Shown here piece after piece: positions 4,342 to 14,689 of a DNA stretch of 64,000 bases. The notes under the pieces are model-generated. The model was not told the origin of the DNA and ran no database searches. It saw only the letters and a program-made list of their open reading frames with translations. A program made the translations under genes and the position numbers. How positions within the stretch are numbered: the first letter of the stretch is position 1; each line of letters starts with the position of its first letter. Source of the stretch: a virus; IMG/VR virus record IMGVR_UViG_3300045988_164842, positions 24,293 to 88,292 of that record; one strand, written 5' to 3'.

Positions 4342-5270
4342 TCTTCATCATTCCTTTCAAGTTCTTTGAGTTTCGTCATATACCATTCAGCTTTCTTTAT
4401 ATCTTCTTCACCGTTCTTCTGCGTTGCTCTAAAACGATATTTGTAAGTGTTACAGCGACAGAAAGATTTAACAGCTTCAACGCCGAAGAGGGAAATCATT
4501 TCGTCAATACATTCATATTTCCCCTGATAATGCTGAGGGTGGTTGACATTATCTTTTACAGGTTGTGAGTTTGTTTCTTTATTGTCTGGCTTCTGAGAAC
4601 AAACTTCCGAAATAATATCCTGAACTTTCTGAGAAAAAAGGTCTTCAAAAAAGCAAGGGAAGCTTTCATCGAATAAGGACAGTATCTTTGTGGATAAACG
4701 TTGCATATCCGGGTGCGGTTTGCCTGTAACTCCAATGGCTCTTAATTTGAAAAAATTTCGCCAACTTCTGATATTCATTGTCATTACAAGCTTAGTAGCA
4801 GTAGCATTCGGCAGAACACCTCTTGCATCTTGAGCAGACATACCACTTCTCACAAATTTGAGGTATTGTTTTTCAGCGGTTGTAAGGAAATTTATATACT
4901 CATAGTATGTGTCTTCATCTGCGGTATCAAGCCAGTATGGCTTAACAAAGGAGATTTCAGAACCAAATTTTTCTTTTGAGTAGTTGCAATATCTTTGGCT
5001 CTGCTGTGAGTAACTCGCTATCCTGTGTCGAACAAGCTCGTGAGAAACTGCACGGTCAGTCACAATTTCCACTGTTATGTTGACGTGTTCAAGAGGACTT
5101 TCATGTCCTGTTGCTATCATTCGCTTGATAAAATTTTCGCAATCTTCTCTTGTAGCAGAGAGCTGTGAGTTGTAGCAAACTCTATACGCTTGTTCAATTG
5201 TGTCAAGCATTGAGACATAGCTTTCAGACGTAGGTGCGATAAGGTTTACGCTTGGTGAAATAAGCTGCAT
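4338..5270 (-). CDS. thyX: FAD-dependent thymidylate synthase ThyX with C-terminal DUF3310-like extension
   Basis: ThyX signature RHRIASYSQQSQRY. The C-terminal 70 aa (NHPQHYQGKYECIDEM..YKYRFRATQKNGEEDIKKAEWY) look like the DUF3310 family. Confidence 0.88.
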   Translation of the reverse strand: MQLISPSVNLIAPTSESYVSMLDTIEQAYRVCYNSQLSATREDCENFIKRMIATGHESPLEHVNITVEIVTDRAVSHELVRHRIASYSQQSQRYCNYSKEKFGSEISFVKPYWLDTADEDTYYEYINFLTTAEKQYLKFVRSGMSAQDARGVLPNATATKLVMTMNIRSWRNFFKLRAIGVTGKPHPDMQRLSTKILSLFDESFPCFFEDLFSQKVQDIISEVCSQKPDNKETNSQPVKDNVNHPQHYQGKYECIDEMISLFGVEAVKSFCRCNTYKYRFRATQKNGEEDIKKAEWYMTKLKELERNDEE

Positions 5271-5355
5271 ATCTCTACCCCTTTCATTTTCTTTATACTT
5301 ATATTTTTCGCTTGAAGAAGGTTTATCAGATATACAAAGTGTGAACTTTTAGTAA

Positions 5356-5391
5356 ATAAAAAAAGCACTACCCGATTTCTCAGATAGTGCT
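5356..5391 (-). terminator. rho-independent terminator after the antirepressor gene
   Basis: Stem AGCACTA (5364-5370) / TAGTGCT (5385-5391), followed on the minus strand by T7. Confidence 0.6.
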
Positions 5392-5398
5392 TATGTAG

Positions 5399-7010: not shown

Positions 7011-8114
7011 TTATTCATTTCTTAAGAATATTGGCATTAACACACCTGTGAAGCTTGGTCTTTCATCTGCCGTAAAAATAATTACATTACGGCAATCTTT
7101 GAATGATAACGTTACCTTGTTCGTTTTCATGTGCTTAACAAAATCGAGAAGCGAATCTGCAGCCATACCGATTTTGATTTCACCACCCGAGATATCCGCT
7201 TCGATTTTCTTTTCACAAAGACCTTTTCCTGTTTCATAGCTGAACGTCATCACATTGTCCTCAATAGTACAAATAACCGGAACTTTACTTTCTGCTTTGA
7301 ACAGTTTGGTGAGGTCAACGTATTCCTTAATATCATCTGATTTCACGGTTGAAATAATTTTAACTTCTGATGGAATCCATGCCTCATAGTTAGGGAAATT
7401 TCCTTCTATTAACTTTGAAGACACCTTATAGTTATCACCTGTAAAACAAACCAACTCTCCTGCAAGAGATACTTTGCAAACTCCATCACCGAGAACATTC
7501 AGTAACTGCTTGAGTGCATTCGCCGGCACTATAAATCGACTATCAACCGCTTGCTGTACGGTTGTAGTTTCGAGAGCCATTCTGTATTCGCAACAAGAGA
7601 TGATTGAAAACGTGTTGTTCTCAACTTCAAAGCATTCACCTGTGAGAATACTCTTCAAAGTATCAACTCTTATAGCAAAAAGAGTTGCTTCAAGCATATC
7701 TCTTAATTTCTTTTCTGAAATTTCAAGAACAGGCTTAAAGTTTTCGTAACACGGTTTCTCAATATCGGATACATCAACTGTTTTCATTCCGCAAGTTGTT
7801 TTACCGCCAGTAATAAGAACGTTACCCGTATCGTCAATTGTCAATTCGATAGTTGGTGATTTCAGCTTCTTGAGTATGCCCGTCAAGAGTTTTGCATCGA
7901 GATATACCATATCAAATTTTTCCGAGTTAGGTATGGCAATTTGCATATCTGTTCCAATACAGTCGTCAAAAAGGTCTTTGCCAAAAATGTGAAGCATTTT
8001 GCCGTCTGATTCAATGCCGAGAAAGCCATCACTGTTTTTCGATGGCTTGATTGCTGTCTTTGATACGATTGTTGCGATGTTTGCGAGTTCTTTTCTTTTG
8101 ATTGTGATTTTCAT
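7011..8114 (-). CDS. dnaN: DNA polymerase III beta sliding clamp homolog
   Basis: 367 aa, typical clamp length. Landmarks: MKITIKRKEL start, GNFPNYEAWIP, C-terminal GVLMPIFL. Confidence 0.82.
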   Translation of the reverse strand: MKITIKRKELANIATIVSKTAIKPSKNSDGFLGIESDGKMLHIFGKDLFDDCIGTDMQIAIPNSEKFDMVYLDAKLLTGILKKLKSPTIELTIDDTGNVLITGGKTTCGMKTVDVSDIEKPCYENFKPVLEISEKKLRDMLEATLFAIRVDTLKSILTGECFEVENNTFSIISCCEYRMALETTTVQQAVDSRFIVPANALKQLLNVLGDGVCKVSLAGELVCFTGDNYKVSSKLIEGNFPNYEAWIPSEVKIISTVKSDDIKEYVDLTKLFKAESKVPVICTIEDNVMTFSYETGKGLCEKKIEADISGGEIKIGMAADSLLDFVKHMKTNKVTLSFKDCRNVIIFTADERPSFTGVLMPIFLRNE

Positions 8115-8193: not shown

Positions 8194-9102
8194 TTATTTT
8201 TTACTTTTTTGGACATTTGAAAGAGGTGAATTGAACATAGCTTCTTTCTTTTGGTTGTCGCTAATATGCGTATAAATCCTTGTTGTGTTCAGATTTTCAT
8301 GTCCGAGAATTTCACAAAGTGTGAGCAAGTCAACACCACCTTGGTACATCATTGTAGCGGCACTGTGTCTAAGTTTGTGTGTAGAAAGTCCTTTATCTTC
8401 AAGTCCTGCCGCCTTCAATGATTTCTTTACAAGCTCCTGTGTTGCCCTAACACTTATTCTTTCTTTCTTCTGAGAAACAAACAACGCTTCGTTTTCATCT
8501 TCCTTTACATAAAGGTATTCTTCCAGAGCTTTTATACAAGCCTTGTTGAGAAAGAGCAGGCGTTCTTTATTTCCTTTGCCGAGAATTTTCATAGTACATT
8601 CCGAGAAATCGATGTCTGACACGTTGAGATTTACAAGCTCACTTACACGCAAACCACAATTAAGGAACAGTACGAGAATACAGTAATCTCTTTCCGGGTG
8701 ACGACTAAAGTCACTGACATGATTAAGAATTTCCGTAGCTTCATCAAGCGTTGCATATTTTGGCAACGCTTTTTTTATCTTTGGTCGTTCAACAAATTCC
8801 GCAGGGTTTTTGTCAATAAGATGAAGCCTTTTCCTTGCGTATTCAAAGAACGATTTGAGAGCGGAAATAGCTCTTGCACGGGTGTTGGTACACACGTTGT
8901 TGTCTGCAAGATGATTAAGGTAATCGTAGATGTTTTCCGGTGTGACTTTCGCTACATCATCAAGAGTAACATTCTCTTTCAGAATGTATGAGAAAAACGA
9001 TTCAGCTTCCCTTGTGTATATAAGAATTGTCTGAGGGGAATTTGCTTTGATGACTTTCAGGTATTCAGCGTATTCATTGATAATTTTTTCTTTGTATTCC
9101 AT
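8194..9102 (-). CDS. tyrosine recombinase (XerC/XerD-type integrase)
   Basis: 302 aa; HKLRHSAATMMYQ..LGHENLNTTRIYTH catalytic box (R..H-R-Y); N-terminal SAM-like domain. Confidence 0.9.
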   Translation of the reverse strand: MEYKEKIINEYAEYLKVIKANSPQTILIYTREAESFFSYILKENVTLDDVAKVTPENIYDYLNHLADNNVCTNTRARAISALKSFFEYARKRLHLIDKNPAEFVERPKIKKALPKYATLDEATEILNHVSDFSRHPERDYCILVLFLNCGLRVSELVNLNVSDIDFSECTMKILGKGNKERLLFLNKACIKALEEYLYVKEDENEALFVSQKKERISVRATQELVKKSLKAAGLEDKGLSTHKLRHSAATMMYQGGVDLLTLCEILGHENLNTTRIYTHISDNQKKEAMFNSPLSNVQKSKK

Positions 9103-9120
9103 GATTTTCTCCTTTCGGCA

Positions 9121-9161
9121 TAAACAAAAGTGATGTAGAATTTTGGCGTTTCTACATCACT
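9121..9161 (-). terminator. rho-independent terminator closing the accessory operon
   Basis: 12-bp perfect stem AGTGATGTAGAA (9129-9140) / TTCTACATCACT (9150-9161), then TTTTGTTT on the minus strand. Confidence 0.65.
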
Positions 9162-9364
9162 GTTTTACATATTCAGTTATTTTTTACTGTCTGGTTTTGT
9201 CATTACACCAAATCAAATTTTCACGCAATTAAATTTTTGTTTTGTAACTGCTTTGTAATTTGTTAGATTTTCTGCGTGTGATAGCTACAGATAATTAAGT
9301 TCGGATTTGGAAATAACTTGTTCCTGAGAACGAAAAGATTACAGGTGTAACCGATTTGTAATAA

Positions 9365-10516
9365 TTAAGTTATTTCAAGGTTATTTTCCTTTATAAAGTT
9401 TAAAATACCGCTTTCAGTGTCTGTTGCATTAAATATAAGTGCTTGCGTAAGTATTTTTGATATTTGTCTTTTTCTTTCTTCAGCTTCTTGTTCTGGGCTT
9501 TTATCCCTAAGAATTTCCTCATCGCTCCTTATGCTGATTAGCATAGAGATGAATCGTGTCAGAACGACGTCTGCTTTTTCAGTTGTATCTAACTTTTCTG
9601 TAACTGAAACATTTATAAGCCAATCTAAATCACCTTGTAAAACCTTTACACCTAATTTAAATTTCTGCAAAACCTGAAGAAGATATTGTGGAAGTTTTTC
9701 AGCGTTAATTGACGTTTTGTATTTAGACAAAATCATCACCTTATCTCTTAAATTTATCCACTCTTTAAAAGGCTTCCAGAAAGTCGTGCAAGAAAAAAAC
9801 ACAGGTACTTTTATGAGCTTAATTTTTGATTCGTCCATATAAAAATCATACTGAAAAGACATACAAGAAGAAAATAATTGGAGATACGCTTTCCTTACAT
9901 GTATATTATTAGGTATATCGTATTCAATATTTTTCTTTATAGCAAAATTAATTAAGCCAACAAACCACGATATCAATGACTTTGAAGAATTTATTAACTC
10001 ACTTTTTTGAAGTTTTTCTGCTATATAAGAAATTTTCTCATAAGATATCTGAGTGAGATGTGTACAGAGAGATTTTGTTTCATCTTCTGTAAGTGAACAA
10101 GTGTAAGGGAAATTTGTTATATCTCCTTTAAGTCCGTCCTTGTATTTTAAGATTAGCAGAGATAATTCATCATCTTTTCCTATAGTCGATACAAAACTAT
10201 ATATTATTGGATACTTTACTCTTTCTTCTTTTTCAATTTCATTTTTGATATAACTCTCTACGGAGTTTACAAGGGGAACAGTTTTGTTAATCTCGTAAAT
10301 TAAAGATTGGTAAGAATCTTCTATGGCTATATTCGTTATGAAGTTCTCTATAGATTTTTTTATGGAAATCAATTTCTTTTTTATATCAGAAACATTCATA
10401 TTGTCATACTTGAAATAAGGGAAAGCAGAGATTCTTTTCAAAATCCAATTCAATGTGTCGATATAGTTTTGAATAGCTTTTTTATATTCTGGGTTTTTAA
10501 ATTTTATTTTATCCAC
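9365..10516 (-). CDS. hypothetical protein (383 aa), accessory operon
   Basis: GTG start 5 nt after GGGAGGTG SD; Lys/Ile/Asn/Ser-rich, apparently helical; no motif recognised. Confidence 0.7.
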   Translation of the reverse strand: MDKIKFKNPEYKKAIQNYIDTLNWILKRISAFPYFKYDNMNVSDIKKKLISIKKSIENFITNIAIEDSYQSLIYEINKTVPLVNSVESYIKNEIEKEERVKYPIIYSFVSTIGKDDELSLLILKYKDGLKGDITNFPYTCSLTEDETKSLCTHLTQISYEKISYIAEKLQKSELINSSKSLISWFVGLINFAIKKNIEYDIPNNIHVRKAYLQLFSSCMSFQYDFYMDESKIKLIKVPVFFSCTTFWKPFKEWINLRDKVMILSKYKTSINAEKLPQYLLQVLQKFKLGVKVLQGDLDWLINVSVTEKLDTTEKADVVLTRFISMLISIRSDEEILRDKSPEQEAEERKRQISKILTQALIFNATDTESGILNFIKENNLEIT

Positions 10517-10531
10517 GTTATCACCTCCCTT

Positions 10532-11575
10532 TTATTTCACATATCTTTCTTTTTCTTCGCCTTTATATCCGTTGACCAGTATTGGAGCAAGCCATTTCAA
10601 TATGAGTTTTTTCTTCCCTGCGATATTGTCATTTACCCAATAATGATGGAAGTGTGCTTTTCTCATATGTGGTTTTCGGGTTTTGTTCTCTCCATCAACG
10701 TCATAAGATTGATATTGAATTGCTTTGATTGTTCCTTGTAAATCATATCCTGTTTTTGTTCCAACGTACTTAACGATTTCTTTATCGTATTCCTTTTGAT
10801 AATCGGGAACAGTTTGGGAATAAGGTTTTTCTGTTATTTCAGCATTGACAGATGAGACATATAGAACTAAAGCAATTATATTTTCTATAAAACCAATGTA
10901 TTCACGTCTTTTCTTTTCTGCTAATTCAAACGATTGTTCTTCAGAAAAACCGTAAATATCCTTACAAGCTTTATAAAAGTCTTTGACTTCTTCCTGAATG
11001 AAAGCGTCAAACAAAATATTTAAGTAAGAGTTTTCTGTATCTGTAACACTAACATTAACTACGATGGTTTCGTCAATGGTTTTCATTGAAAGATTTCCTA
11101 ACTCGTATTCAAAACACGCCTCTGTCTGATTTGTTTTTATACGAAATTTATAAAACGGGATAGTATCAAGTATTTCTGTTGGAATATTTGTTTCTTTCAA
11201 TGAAAACCCTGAGCATATAAAATCAGCTATAGTTTTATCAAAAACAAACACCTGTGGGTACTGCTTTTTAAGTTCATATTCCGCTGAATGATTTTTTCTT
11301 ATCCCAGCCTTTATTTCTCGAATGATTTTATAGTCTTCTTCATAATCCTCGAAGTTGTACCAGTAATCATTAGGGTAGAAAAAATTTTTCATAGCTCCGA
11401 TTTTGTATTTTTCGCAAAATGAATAATCATCAAAATGCCCAATATATCGTGCAATTTTAATCGGTTTCTTCCTGTCATCACACAAAATAAGATTGTATCC
11501 CGGAATGGCGTAATAAAAAGCTAAGTCCTCGTCATCAATCTGAACATATTCTCTTGGCTTATATTGAATATACAT
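10532..11575 (-). CDS. hypothetical protein (347 aa), accessory operon
   Basis: ATG with GTGGTGA SD. The N-terminal about 50 aa are paralogous to the upstream small ORF. C-terminal basic/His motif RKPHMRKAHFHHYWV. Confidence 0.7.
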   Translation of the reverse strand: MYIQYKPREYVQIDDEDLAFYYAIPGYNLILCDDRKKPIKIARYIGHFDDYSFCEKYKIGAMKNFFYPNDYWYNFEDYEEDYKIIREIKAGIRKNHSAEYELKKQYPQVFVFDKTIADFICSGFSLKETNIPTEILDTIPFYKFRIKTNQTEACFEYELGNLSMKTIDETIVVNVSVTDTENSYLNILFDAFIQEEVKDFYKACKDIYGFSEEQSFELAEKKRREYIGFIENIIALVLYVSSVNAEITEKPYSQTVPDYQKEYDKEIVKYVGTKTGYDLQGTIKAIQYQSYDVDGENKTRKPHMRKAHFHHYWVNDNIAGKKKLILKWLAPILVNGYKGEEKERYVK

Positions 11576-11586
11576 TTTATCACCAC

Positions 11587-11883
11587 TTATTCTTGGATTT
11601 TTACCATACGCTTATAGATACCTTTGTAGTAAAGTCCATCGCTTAATCCAGCAGAAGAACATAAGACGTCCGATGGAAAAGGGAAGCGAGGACAATCGCC
11701 TTGTATGAATTTATAGACACCAATTCTTTTCTTATTGTTGTCACATAAGTATAAATCGTAACCAACTTCTAAAAGATTTGCGATATGTTCGTCTATGTAT
11801 TCTTTTGCATCTTGTTCATCCATGTCGTCGCTGCCACGAATTTTTTTGTATCTGCATGGCTTCCATTCTACATAATATGCCAT
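11587..11883 (-). CDS. hypothetical protein (about 98 aa), paralog of the N-terminus of the 347-aa protein
   Basis: MAYYVEWKPCRY..GYDLYLCDNNKKRIGVYKFI aligns with YIQYKPREY..GYNLILCDDRKKPIKIARYI. Start is uncertain (ATG 11883 preferred; ATG 11907 and TTG 11919 possible). Confidence 0.6.
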   Translation of the reverse strand: MAYYVEWKPCRYKKIRGSDDMDEQDAKEYIDEHIANLLEVGYDLYLCDNNKKRIGVYKFIQGDCPRFPFPSDVLCSSAGLSDGLYYKGIYKRMVKIQE

Positions 11884-11924
11884 ATTAGCACGTCCTTTCT
11901 GTTTCATATAAAAGCTCAACCTTA

Positions 11925-12725
11925 TCAGTCAACCTTTATCCCAGTTGTTCTGAAAAAGATTTCGCTATCAAAGTTCGGGAGACTTTTAATTTCCTCTTTA
12001 TCGCATGGAGAGAGGTTGTTCCATTTGTTTTGTTTATCTTCGGATTCTATAAGAGTAATCATGATTTTTCTTGCTGGTGAAGACATCCAATCTTCATAAG
12101 TCCAATCCGACATTTTATCGAACATACGAATACATTCCTTTTTGTAGGACTTTTCATTGAAACAGCCATAAACGTATGCTCCTGAATTGCAATCACCATA
12201 ATTATAGTTACCTGAATTGCAATCACCATAATTATAGTTACCTGAATTGTAGTAACCGTAATTACGAGTACCTGAGTTAAAGCTTCCGCAATTTTCTTCA
12301 CCTGAATTGCAATCGCCATAATTATAAACTCCGTCATTATTGCTACCATAGTTATTCCAACCAAGATTATTATTTCCGTAATTGAAGTTACCCTCGTTGT
12401 CATTACCGTAATTATAGTTGCCTGAATTCAAAACTCCCGCATTGTCTTCCCCGGAATTCATTTCAGCAAGAAAATCTTCCATGTGATATACTTTAATCAC
12501 TCTAAAATCTTTAGCAGTGAAAAATTCGTTTTCAAAAGGAGTTCCTTTATCCGACATTTCTATTTCTCCAAGAGCCTCCAATTGAACAATAACACCGAAA
12601 GTGTAGGAATAATCTAAAAGATTAACGCCTTTTTTCATAAACCTAAGCCCTTCTTTATCATGGATGACATCAGAGAGAGAAAAATTGCGAAATTCATCAG
12701 GTGTAAGATGTATATATCCTTCCAT
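11925..12725 (-). CDS. pentapeptide-repeat protein
   Basis: About 18 consecutive 5-residue units (NSGNY NYGND NEGNF NYGNN ...) flanked by unique N- and C-terminal domains; GAAAGGA SD. Confidence 0.8.
   Translation of the reverse strand: MEGYIHLTPDEFRNFSLSDVIHDKEGLRFMKKGVNLLDYSYTFGVIVQLEALGEIEMSDKGTPFENEFFTAKDFRVIKVYHMEDFLAEMNSGEDNAGVLNSGNYNYGNDNEGNFNYGNNNLGWNNYGSNNDGVYNYGDCNSGEENCGSFNSGTRNYGYYNSGNYNYGDCNSGNYNYGDCNSGAYVYGCFNEKSYKKECIRMFDKMSDWTYEDWMSSPARKIMITLIESEDKQNKWNNLSPCDKEEIKSLPNFDSEIFFRTTGIKVD
12181..12240. repeat. perfect 2 x 30-bp tandem duplication inside the pentapeptide-repeat gene
   Basis: cctgaattgcaatcaccataattatagtta occurs twice back to back; degenerate copies continue to about 12340. 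Confidence 0.95.
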
Positions 12726-12750
12726 TTTAATATTCCTTTCGTGTATAAAG

Positions 12751-12993
12751 TTATTTTGTATACCCTAAAAGCCACATTTCTGACTTGTCCAGTGCTACAG
12801 CCAGTAATGTGAGCTTTTCTTTTTTAGGGCAACAGTAAGCGTGCCTATATCGTGATATATCAGATGTTGTTATCTTAGCTTCTACTCCTATTTCTTTAGC
12901 TACAACGTCACAAGCTTTCCTTAATTCCTGTGGAGTAATGCCTTTTTCGGAAATAGCTTGTTCTATTCGGAGTGCAAATACTTGTTTCTTCAT
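12751..12993 (-). CDS. XRE-family helix-turn-helix regulator
   Basis: 80 aa; ISEKGITPQELRKACDV..ITTSDISRY HTH. ATG 12993 lies 6 nt after GAGGTG (the track GTG 13002 is inside the SD). Confidence 0.7.
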   Translation of the reverse strand: MKKQVFALRIEQAISEKGITPQELRKACDVVAKEIGVEAKITTSDISRYRHAYCCPKKEKLTLLAVALDKSEMWLLGYTK

Positions 12994-13036
12994 CGTTATC
13001 ACCTCAAATAGTATTTCAATCTTGAAACCCTATTTT

Positions 13037-13065
13037 AGTATATCACAATACAGTTTTTTCGTCAA
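13037..13065 (-). promoter_or_regulatory. sigma-70-type promoter of the accessory operon
   Basis: TTGACG (13065-13060), 17 nt, TGATATACT extended -10 (13045-13037), read on the minus strand. Confidence 0.6.
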
Positions 13066-13202
13066 GGTTTTTTGTTATTCCATTCATCAAGTTTTCTGAA
13101 AAGCTCATCAACTCTCTTTTTGTTTTTTAAGAAAAAGAACCAGCCGTCAATGTACTCAGTTACTATTTGAATAACAAGTAAAACAACTGCCAAGAATGCC
13201 AT
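13062..13202 (-). CDS. small membrane protein candidate (46 aa)
   Basis: Below the ORF-track cutoff. ATG 13202 follows AAAGGAGGTG. MAFLAVVLLVIQIVTEYIDGWFFFLKNKKRVDELFRKLDEWNNKKP has a hydrophobic N-terminus and charged tail. Confidence 0.5.
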   Translation of the reverse strand: MAFLAVVLLVIQIVTEYIDGWFFFLKNKKRVDELFRKLDEWNNKKP

Positions 13203-13229
13203 ATTTTTCACCTCCTTTCTTTTAGGAAG

Positions 13230-13252
13230 CCCCGTGTAGCCGATAGGTCAGC
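13230..13252 (-). promoter_or_regulatory. conserved leader box, copy a
   Basis: Minus-strand GCTGACCTATCGGCTACACGGGG, about 25 nt upstream of the SD of the 46-aa ORF. Near-identical to the boxes at 18602-18625 and 20305-20327. Confidence 0.55.
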
Positions 13253-13258
13253 GCAACA

Positions 13259-14689
13259 TCATATGGCTTTATCCGTTCTTAAACGCACAAACATCCTGTC
13301 AAATTCTGCGTTAATTTTTTTACGTTCTTCTCCCTCTGGTTTCACAGTAAATTCCGCATGACCGCAAAGATAATCAGATTGCATTCCGATATCCTCAAGC
13401 CTATCCTTGACATAGCAAGCAAACGCTCTTGCGAGCATTTCTTCATCAGAAGCCCAGTAACCATGTGCTTCCTTGCTGTAACTTCTATCAGCTTCTTGCG
13501 ATTTTTTGAAGTAGTTTGACACATTGCGACCTTTATCATGTTTCATAGTATCGGTAACGTCATGTAGGTACTTTTTTATTCCTTTTACTTTCAGGTAGCG
13601 AGAGAGAGCATGAAACCATTCGTGAGCAAGAGAACCTGCACCTTTCATCTTTGTCAGGCTTATAACGTTTCTCTCAGGTTCGTAATGAGCAACTGAACCT
13701 GCACGTCCTCTTGAACCGTAAGCAATTGCTAACTGACCTCCAAGAGAAATCTGTTCAGGTGCGAAACCGATTGCGATAGCTAAATCTCTTAACGCGTCAT
13801 ATGACATATCAAGATTTGCTTGCCTGTCTTGCTGAGTTTGCCAGTTGCCGAACTCACCGCCACGGAATTTAAACGTCTGCAATATTTCATCTGTAGTAAC
13901 AGGTACGCCGTTTCTGTAGTTTATGCCTGTTCTGGTAATGTGTACTAACTGTGGTGGTACAGCTTTCTTTTTGCGAGGTTTCTTTTCAGCAACAGGCTTT
14001 TCAGTGTTCTTGACTGTTCGTAAGATGATTTCTTTTGCTGTTTCTTCGCTTTCTACGCCACAACAAATAGCCTTGCGAGTAGGTCTACTGATGATTACAT
14101 AGCCGTATCCTGTAAAAGCTTCTTTATCGAAAAGAGGTTTGTAAAAAGAAGCACCGTATATATCTTTAACCTTAACATACCCTTCCTCGATAGAGCAGTC
14201 AGAGCCTTTAACTATTCGATAATCCGCAAGTATTTTTTCATCTTCCGTGTAAAGGAATTTCTTTTCTTTGATGAAAACCTTTACAGCATGAAGGTCTGTT
14301 TCCACTGCCGATTCCACTTTGGAGAAATCATAGTGAAACCAACACTCTGTATACTGTGCCAAGTAAGTCGAAAGTTTTCCGAAATCTTCAAACTTTCGAA
14401 CTTCATCTGTTGTCTTCTTAATAAAAACGGTTATGTCGTAGTATGTTTGCGGAGTTACGAAGGTTGGTCTTGTAGGGATTGCATCTCTTATCATTTTTAT
14501 CTTCGCTACAATCTCAATCGGAAGCCCATTGTCTTTCATTTTCTGATAATTCGGTTTCTTCCAGATATTATCCCTTATCACCAATTGCCTCTGTTCATCT
14601 GCTGTCCAATCGCCTATATCTGCTGTTCCTTTTGAGAGCAAATCCTTTCTTGCTCCACCGATTTTCTGCCCAAAGTCTTTGATATCCAT
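13259..14689 (-). CDS. large protein with zincin-like HExxH motif (polyvalent-protein-type domains?)
   Basis: ATG 14689 follows GGAGGA. N-terminus MDIKDFGQKIGGARKDL; HEWFH motif plus downstream WASDEEMLARAFACYV. The family call is from memory of polyvalent-protein LPD/MPTase domains. Confidence 0.55.
   Translation of the reverse strand: MDIKDFGQKIGGARKDLLSKGTADIGDWTADEQRQLVIRDNIWKKPNYQKMKDNGLPIEIVAKIKMIRDAIPTRPTFVTPQTYYDITVFIKKTTDEVRKFEDFGKLSTYLAQYTECWFHYDFSKVESAVETDLHAVKVFIKEKKFLYTEDEKILADYRIVKGSDCSIEEGYVKVKDIYGASFYKPLFDKEAFTGYGYVIISRPTRKAICCGVESEETAKEIILRTVKNTEKPVAEKKPRKKKAVPPQLVHITRTGINYRNGVPVTTDEILQTFKFRGGEFGNWQTQQDRQANLDMSYDALRDLAIAIGFAPEQISLGGQLAIAYGSRGRAGSVAHYEPERNVISLTKMKGAGSLAHEWFHALSRYLKVKGIKKYLHDVTDTMKHDKGRNVSNYFKKSQEADRSYSKEAHGYWASDEEMLARAFACYVKDRLEDIGMQSDYLCGHAEFTVKPEGEERKKINAEFDRMFVRLRTDKAI

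Follow-up and report, generated by a model that had tools for sequence, protein, structure and literature searches.

An AcrVA2-like protein and its fast-evolving partner in an exchangeable phage cassette: a candidate counter-defence or inter-element conflict operon

The 64,000-nucleotide (nt) stretch of viral DNA analysed here (the window), which spans bases 24,293 to 88,292 of IMG/VR virus record IMGVR_UViG_3300045988_164842, carries beside its integrase gene a five-gene operon on the minus strand, encoding a helix-turn-helix (HTH) protein, a pentapeptide-repeat protein and proteins of 98, 347 and 383 amino acids (aa), in that order. Our analysis places the 347-aa protein in the AcrVA2/FinQ family and links its gene to that of the 383-aa protein (hereafter the partner), the two being exchanged between related phages together with the 98-aa gene. 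We consider it probable that this is a conserved operon under its own control, serving counter-defence or conflict between elements, with a core that silences one target co-translationally; the direction of its action (anti-defence, exclusion or host takeover) is not settled by sequence. The original prediction, made by a model from the letters and their open reading frames (ORFs), had proposed a novel defence, exclusion or anti-defence island whose three distal proteins resembled nothing recognizable. A role in conflict fits the core, which belongs to a family that includes an anti-CRISPR and a fertility factor, whereas the novelty is incomplete, as the pentapeptide protein has more than 200 phage proteins as family members. 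Likewise, the 347-aa protein turned out to fall into a named Pfam family (PF26125), and the 383-aa protein proved to be without known family or fold. Profile searches assigned a housekeeping function to none of the five proteins. Comparison with PADLOC-DB 2.0 yielded no known defence system, with no hits for four of the proteins and weak HTH-level hits for the first.

Sequence comparison establishes the 347-aa protein as a genuine AcrVA2/FinQ family member. Relatives of the operon proteins and their contigs (L- and P-numbered) were obtained by exact-protein look-up in metagenome assemblies, and PF26125 ("AcrVA2-like") is annotated on a 99%-identical homologue (P0001) and on the orthologues in L093, L094 and L096-L101. 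The protein also matches phrog_6160 (E-value (E) 5e-28). Aligned with hhalign to a profile of five phage members (Pasteurella CFP3, Leptospira LE1, Lactobacillus JCL1032, an Erwinia jumbo phage and a faecal phage), the subfamily profile reached a probability of 99.6% and an E of 5e-25 over residues 110-338. The sole find of a phmmer search against the PDB was AcrVA2 (7ci1, E 0.015), the match being limited to residues 287-336 and including the C-terminal stretch in which KPHMRKAHFHHYW of the 347-aa protein aligns with RPHIRRGHWHGYW of 7ci1. A transitive link is provided by the Pasteurella phage CFP3 protein, which aligns with the 347-aa protein and reaches 7ci1 at an E of 3.7e-17 over 225 residues.

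The protein can be divided into a private N-terminal domain (residues 1-107) and an AcrVA2-like core (residues 108-338) containing the motif P302-H303-x-R305-x-x-H308...W313. Residues P302, H303, R305, H308, W313, W328 and P331 are invariant in 9/9 divergent sequences, and H303, R305 and H308 align with PHIRRGHWHGYW of 7ci1, corresponding to H286, R288 and H291 of AcrVA2; mutation of these residues abolishes the knock-down of Cas12a mRNA (10.1101/2022.11.29.518452). AcrVA2 mutated at W79 or D89 shows a moderate loss of function, and the presumed equivalent of D89, D113, as matched by its W-x10-D spacing, is invariant in the subfamily. The N-terminal domain aligns with no other family member, whether in the nine-sequence alignment, by hhalign or among 155 relatives in species-representative genomes, and its profile returned nothing but DARPin noise from the PDB. 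An assignment as an anti-Cas12a protein (AcrVA2 sensu stricto) was rejected on these grounds: the N-terminal domain is unrelated to that of AcrVA2, and the target is therefore probably not Cas12a.

The biology of the family is what leads us to propose the 347-aa protein as a co-translational silencer of one target. AcrVA2 binds the nascent N-terminal peptide of its target (Cas12a), uses its C-terminal part to associate with ribosomes and brings in a cellular enzyme of mRNA decay, which removes the untranslated 3' part of the mRNA (PMC13728456). FinQ, a homologue of AcrVA2, lowers the level of F transfer-gene mRNA, and members of the family diverge at their N-termini (10.1101/2022.11.29.518452). 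About 1,800 orthologues are given in the literature (10.1101/2022.11.29.518452), so AcrVA2-like genes are common cargo and the family assignment alone is ordinary.

Less ordinary is the company that the gene keeps. All contigs with a relative of the partner (L002, L003, L004, L008, L009, L093, L094, L095 and L096-L101) have a gene of the AcrVA2-like subfamily 12-17 nt upstream, and the reverse is also true. These contigs represent six distinct alleles (window/L002/L097-L101; L096/L009/L094; L003/L004; L093; L008; L095), between which the AcrVA2-like protein is 47-66% identical, with the C-terminal 52 residues most conserved (78%), and the partner only 25-55% identical, making it the fastest-evolving protein. 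A comparison of the window with sister phage L096 by tblastn revealed where such alleles are exchanged. The proteins encoded on either side are nearly the same (LPD1 96%, HTH 94%, pentapeptide 96% and integrase 97% identical), whereas those of the three distal genes are not (98-aa 39%, 347-aa 60% and 383-aa 27% identical). By blastn, the 95.8% identity of the upstream flank ends at window position 11893, some 30 nt past the stop codon of the pentapeptide gene, and identity returns at 88.9% from position 9370, in the stop codon of the 383-aa gene. The breakpoints thus enclose precisely three genes, and this stretch is exchanged as one unit. The original prediction of a separate acquisition is borne out for these distal genes by the cassette swap and does not extend to all five, the HTH protein being 94-100% conserved together with the phage backbone.

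The first protein of the cassette, of 98 aa, is by sequence a stand-alone paralog of the N-terminal module of the 347-aa protein. It resembles residues 2-46 of the latter (BLASTP E 2e-4), and hhalign of the two small families gave a probability of 91.9% (E 7e-7). Local alignment scores of 53-69, against 34 +/- 5.5 for shuffled sequences, lie 4-6 standard deviations above expectation in every allele combination, and both proteins carry the motif Y.x.KP..Y..I...GY.L.LCD..KK.I...FI. In three alleles (A, B and C) the pair comes with a 98-aa gene, which in L093 is missing from its upstream side. Covariation of the 98-aa protein with its cognate N-terminal domain gave no allele-specific signal.

Two observations on relatives of this module may be recorded here. 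The 98-aa homologue of allele C (L003, 486-755) has no canonical in-frame start, its ATG lying one frame off and upstream of an A7 run, which points to a mistake in assembly, a pseudogene or a slippery start. P0005, a 191-aa protein from a 1,079-bp metagenome contig, has a first stretch of about 58 residues that is 97% identical to the N-terminus of the 347-aa protein, followed by a hemerythrin-like domain (PF01814); a chimera of assembly is the likeliest explanation, but the N-terminal module could also be part of a real fusion here.

The partner is a new, very rare family with a predicted helical fold that has no known match. Its sequence found 4 cluster representatives among 1.84 billion, and a profile search of 5.8 billion clusters returned 3 hits and nothing further, so that with about six relatives in billions of proteins it is a near-orphan. 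Searches of Pfam, PHROG, PADLOC and NCBIfam assigned it to no family. The AlphaFold2 model, built from seven sequences (predicted local distance difference test score (pLDDT) 82.7; predicted template modelling score (pTM) 0.65), is mostly helical with one beta-hairpin (residues 219-240), and Foldseek found no match for it in the PDB or BFVD (best E 0.2-0.4, template modelling score < 0.2). No HEPN or PD-(D/E)xK motif is visible by eye among the invariant residues. A match to YheA (E 0.035) from the profile and phmmer searches against PDB sequences was dismissed as noise. From the Pfam scan, weak matches to Tox-REase-9 (E 0.093), NCBP3 and DUF438, far below the cut-off, were also dismissed.

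The regulator at the head of the operon consists of a CI-like, XRE-fold HTH domain only. Residues 9-78 resemble the N-terminal domain of CI from the Lactococcus phage TP901-1 (5a7l, 6tri and 3zhm; phmmer against the PDB, E 5e-4), and the protein matches the transcriptional regulators of phrog_8 (E 3.8e-5), is 94-100% identical in relatives and in PADLOC gave only weak RmrA-like HTH matches (E 0.005). Within the inverted repeat that follows the promoter lies a perfect core, TTTCAA-GA-TTGAAA (13014-13027), which is 100% conserved in four relatives and makes the repeat a candidate binding site of the operon's own HTH protein. An HTH protein encoded in the operon and an inverted repeat at the promoter are hallmarks of acr-aca operons, which share with this locus a strong promoter, a small HTH protein, a palindrome overlapping the promoter or leader, an end terminator and variable cargo. 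By this analogy the HTH protein is a probable autorepressor with an Aca-like role.

The following sequence of events would account for these features. The strong, extended -10 promoter would drive all five genes until the HTH protein, most likely by binding the palindrome between the -10 element and the ribosome-binding site (RBS), shuts the operon down as an Aca protein does. By analogy with AcrVA2, the C-terminal H303-x-R305-x-x-H308 region of the 347-aa protein would dock on translating ribosomes, and the private N-terminal domain with the middle part of the protein would recognize the nascent chain of one target, whose mRNA, going by the family, would then be lost. More speculatively, the partner would probably supply the choice of target, a link to RNA decay or control of the silencer, and the 98-aa protein might compete or pair with the silencer's N-terminal module. 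The DUF7666/pentapeptide-2 protein would be a second cargo that varies independently, and phages that are almost identical could redirect the system to another target by swapping the complete cassette.

Several observations weigh against this co-translational silencing operon. No terminator was found between the operon and the co-directional genes upstream, so that read-through from neighbouring early genes is possible. The pairwise divergences of the AcrVA2-like protein and its partner show no clear correlation, and co-evolution is therefore not demonstrated. At the position of AcrVA2 W79, which is W in the five other phage members, the subfamily has a lysine (K103). The AlphaFold2 model of the 347-aa protein, from a 5-sequence alignment, reached a pLDDT of only 51.9 and Foldseek did not recover 7ci1 with it, a result that carries no weight because the model is poor. 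As to the regulator, the HTH gene comes first here whereas it is last in most acr-aca operons, and its product is likened to Aca proteins by its HTH fold and the palindrome at the promoter, no named Aca family having been matched in the profile searches made.

A more elaborate form of the same idea, that the AcrVA2-like protein docks on the ribosome while the partner is an obligatory adaptor for specificity or RNA decay, the 98-aa protein is a regulator or decoy and the cassette swap retargets the system, is in our judgement possible but doubtful. If true, the partner would be the phage's substitute for, or its bridge to, the cellular enzyme recruited by AcrVA2. How nascent-peptide recognition becomes mRNA loss is an unresolved question for the AcrVA2 family, in which the recruited enzyme and the targets of nearly all of the roughly 1,800 homologues await identification, and a subfamily with a dedicated partner and a detachable copy of its N-terminal module would offer a genetic handle on the mechanism, with the partner as a possible missing adaptor or a possible regulator. 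For target finding, phages that are nearly identical and differ by a natural swap of alleles would furthermore serve as ready isogenic pairs. Should the partner prove irrelevant, what remains is a phage accessory operon with yet another AcrVA2-like gene as cargo.

The genomic setting bears on the direction of the conflict. The source record is an 88,292-bp genome with direct terminal repeats that was judged complete, and profile scans of the window proteins place the operon within a long leftward gene block that encodes an anaerobic ribonucleotide reductase (NrdD), ThyX, a dUTPase, two Bro-N antirepressor-like proteins, a sliding clamp, the tyrosine recombinase, an LPD1 zincin protein and a GP88/LRR protein. 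A prophage exclusion or defence system, in which the operon of a resident or carrier-state phage turns off a gene brought in by a competing phage or plasmid, rather than a host defence, and so shields both host and prophage, would resemble FinQ, the family member that inhibits transfer of a rival plasmid, and the position of the operon next to an integrase, with its own promoter and terminator, is the classic one of a moron. In Lactobacillus phage JCL1032 and Pasteurella phage CFP3, too, AcrVA2-like genes have the integrase gene or attP as a neighbour, lying between lysis or tail genes and attP/int, and allele swapping with a fast-evolving partner would fit an arms race with other elements. 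We nevertheless regard this alternative as rather unlikely, although sequence alone does not separate it from counter-defence: PADLOC gave no hit, the sole phage member studied mechanistically is an anti-defence protein, and the operon is co-directional with, and uninsulated from, genes of early lytic type (LPD1, clamp, antirepressors, NrdD and ThyX). Because of this shared direction with early-type genes, anti-defence or takeover during infection is weighted above lysogenic exclusion.

That the linkage has no meaning at all, with five unrelated accessory genes sharing one transcript and the AcrVA2-like protein acting alone as other members do, strikes us as improbable. Such a view would draw on the pentapeptide protein, which varies independently of the cassette, on the HTH and pentapeptide genes, which do not accompany the pair outside this phage group, and on the survey of gene neighbourhoods called for by the original prediction, in which most AcrVA2-like genes in 79 genomes had no recurrent neighbour. 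In that survey the two neighbours on either side of 79 other AcrVA2-like genes included no recurrent family and nothing like the HTH, pentapeptide, 98-aa or 383-aa proteins. Against it, all six alleles keep the two genes side by side, with identity falling to 47% for the AcrVA2-like protein and 25% for the partner, and they do so in two or three genomic contexts at least; the breakpoints of the exchange coincide with the limits of the cassette, and the 98-aa gene is paralogous to the N-terminal module of the silencer itself. One of these contexts is provided by L008, in which the pair adjoins metal-resistance genes (a P-type metal ATPase, an HMA protein and an ArsR-type regulator on the other strand); the stretch 3' of the cassette runs into these genes, and the module therefore also occurs outside this phage backbone.

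Least probable of the alternatives is an addiction or toxin-antitoxin-like pair, in which the AcrVA2-like protein would be harmful by silencing an essential host gene and the partner would neutralize it, thereby stabilizing the phage or plasmid-prophage: strict two-gene linkage with the short spacing kept in all alleles, a partner that evolves faster than the effector and the occurrence of the pair outside the phage backbone, beside metal-resistance genes (L008), would suit it, whereas no operon protein hit a toxin-antitoxin family, type II components are typically much smaller than the 347-aa and 383-aa proteins, the partner gene lies downstream while most antitoxin genes lie upstream, and AcrVA2 proved non-toxic, its target mRNA being the only one changed in transcriptomes (10.1101/2022.11.29.518452).

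The layout of the operon agrees in most respects with what had been predicted (Table 1): all five ORFs were found in place and in the expected order on the minus strand, with intergenic gaps of 11-41 nt and a good RBS before each gene. The HTH gene starts at ATG 12993; a GTG at 13002 falls within the RBS GAGGTG and is out of frame in relatives through a 1-nt indel. The operon's own promoter is the best sigma-70 match within 4.5 kb, and its hexamers are invariant in L002, L096, L097 and L101.

Table 1. Features of the operon and its borders, in window coordinates.
Feature	Position	Strand	Remarks
Sigma-70-type promoter, extended -10, TTGACG-17 nt-TGaTATACT	13065-13037	minus	10/12 matches plus TG
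Operator-like imperfect palindrome (28-nt inverted repeat)	13006-13036	minus	between -10 and RBS
HTH gene	12751-12993	minus	80 aa
Pentapeptide protein gene	11925-12725	minus	266 aa
98-aa protein gene	11587-11883	minus	ORF confirmed
AcrVA2-like protein gene	10532-11575	minus	347 aa
Partner protein gene	9365-10516	minus	383 aa
Exchangeable three-gene cassette (98-aa, AcrVA2-like, 383-aa)	9371-11892	minus	divergent allele in sister phage L096
Non-coding spacer, cassette to hairpin	9162-9364	minus	conserved among relatives (alignments)
Intrinsic-terminator-like hairpin	9121-9161	minus	12-bp stem, 9-nt loop, then UUUUGUUU

At the distal end, the predicted strong terminator was recovered as a hairpin of -19.6 kcal/mol (z = -4.85), which 0/200 shuffled sequences equalled in stability; it was missed by a consensus scanner because its loop is 9 nt long. 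The hairpin is kept in L096 and L101, and in L097 its 5' arm is shortened by an 8-nt deletion. The tyrosine recombinase gene that the operon was said to adjoin (8194-9102; PF00589, E 1.9e-43) begins 262 nt downstream of the operon, and some 10 nt separate the end of the hairpin's U-tract from the integrase RBS (GAAAGGAG, followed by the ATG at 9102). The integrase can therefore be expressed only by read-through or from a promoter upstream of the hairpin and, with no promoter room between the two, its expression must, to judge from this layout, depend on read-through or attenuation at the hairpin. The operon is thus self-contained in having its own promoter and terminator, and not in its borders, as it is open to transcription from upstream and its hairpin has to be read through for the integrase.

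The spacer between the cassette and the hairpin holds two kinds of conserved sequence. Its first 75 nt or so (window 9295-9370) are conserved in L096 and also follow the partner gene in L008 (1228-1300); they hold GGTTACAccTGTAAtC (GGTTACA-cc-TGTAAtC) followed by TTTT and could be a recombination anchor or a weak terminator that moves with the cassette. The remainder (9162-9290) has repeated (A/G)TTACAAA and TGTAA(T/C) motifs, which are well conserved in relatives and could be recombinase binding sites (attP or dif-like). Folding of the 3' flank of the cassette was not significant (z -0.98), and an Rfam scan of 8900-13400 returned no family. At the other end of the operon, the LPD1 gene and the operon promoter are separated by a 46-aa hydrophobic ORF (MAFLAVVLLVIQIV...; window 13062-13202), which is 93-98% conserved in all sister phages and whose stop codon falls inside the -35 hexamer of the operon.

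Base composition sets the operon apart as anticipated. It has a GC content of 32.6%, against a genome mean of 37.5% (standard deviation 2.1), which places it in the lowest 1% of equal-length windows across the whole 88-kb genome, and the drop comes mostly from the two distal genes (32% and, for the last gene, 29%).

The second cargo gene encodes a 266-aa protein with a DUF7666-like N-domain, about 20 NxGxx repeats and a conserved C-domain (W..W...LPNFD..IF..TGI). The repeats, in which N at i and G at i+2 are invariant, match Pentapeptide_2 (PF01469) in three stretches (E 5.8e-17; 61.7 bits against a cut-off of 26.4), and the protein as a whole matches phrog_14105 (E 9.5e-43). At the DNA level, part of the gene forms an array with a 30-bp period (4.9 copies, window 12181-12326). 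Most of its 213 relatives combine DUF7666 (PF24703) with PF01469. The relatives are found in large phages and prophages of gut Firmicutes, a prophage of Ruminococcus bicirculans among them, where small accessory genes surround theirs. A 347-aa gene near the pentapeptide homologue in that prophage is unrelated to the AcrVA2-like protein despite its identical length. Sister phages carry alleles of 266, 256 (60% identity) and 226 aa that vary independently of the cassette. The 226-aa allele (P0014, 18 contigs) differs by an exact deletion of 40 residues, equivalent to four 10-residue double repeats, and is 96% identical elsewhere, which argues that repeat number varies in nature. In L101 an additional gene (4374-5396) is inserted between the HTH and pentapeptide genes; the N-domain of its 340-aa product matches DUF7666 weakly (E 0.0024) and the C-terminal part resembles phrog_14105 (E 1.2e-6), so that the protein is, by these matches, a second, divergent paralog of the pentapeptide family.

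The operon is carried by a small group of gut phages of 70-95 kb; in sister phages of 71 and 95 kb, the same operon lies between the LPD1/46-aa genes and the integrase gene. Anaerobic nucleotide metabolism, a GC content of 37.5% and the sources of the relatives suggest a host among gut Clostridia. A blastn search of 50,697 phage records found no match to the operon DNA, and a search of IMG/VR for related loci with the AcrVA2-like alignment, the integrase and the clamp returned nothing useful. Two further differences between the sister phages were observed. An IS605-type OrfB/TnpB gene (PF01385, Cas12f1-like_TNB) lies between the antirepressor-like genes in L097 (16391-17542) and L098 (16399-17550) and is absent from the window. 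The 95-kb phage L096 has an additional gene (7420-8037) between its GP88/LRR and LPD1 genes, encoding a 205-aa protein to which no family was assigned; part of this gene shows 71% DNA similarity to a stretch of the window's LPD1 gene (window 14044-14269).

Compared with known systems, the pentapeptide protein shares with the DNA mimics Qnr, MfpA and AlbG (PF00805) five-residue tandem repeats, a likely beta-solenoid and the format of a small soluble protein. It differs in that its repeats are of the PF01469 NxGxx type and are flanked by the DUF7666-like N-domain and the C-domain of its phage family; PF00805, with the A(D/N)LXX repeat of the Qnr/MfpA type, gave no hit at E <= 0.1.

For the core of the operon, the closest comparison is with AcrVA2 of a Moraxella bovoculi prophage (7CI1/7CI2), the founder of PF26125 and phrog_6160. 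The two proteins have in common a core of about 230 residues with the P-H-x-R-x-x-H...W motif, a similar size (347 here versus 323 aa) and, like other members, a position as phage cargo near an integrase. They differ in their N-termini, the first 107 or so residues here being unalignable with AcrVA2, and in the replacement of W79 by lysine. The 383-aa partner, always present here, and the frequent paralog of the N-terminal module are not reported for AcrVA2 and were absent beside the 79 other members surveyed, and for the AcrVA2 family as a whole neither an obligate non-homologous partner, nor a stand-alone paralog of the N-terminal module, nor exchange as a three-gene cassette has been described. 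FinQ of IncI/F-like plasmids differs in being a protein of Enterobacteria plasmids with no known partner gene, and its kinship is taken from the published family assignment of Marino et al. It is likewise an accessory gene of a mobile element directed against a rival element at the mRNA level, and the alternative inhibitor genes borne by otherwise conserved plasmid backbones resemble the exchange of alleles seen here.

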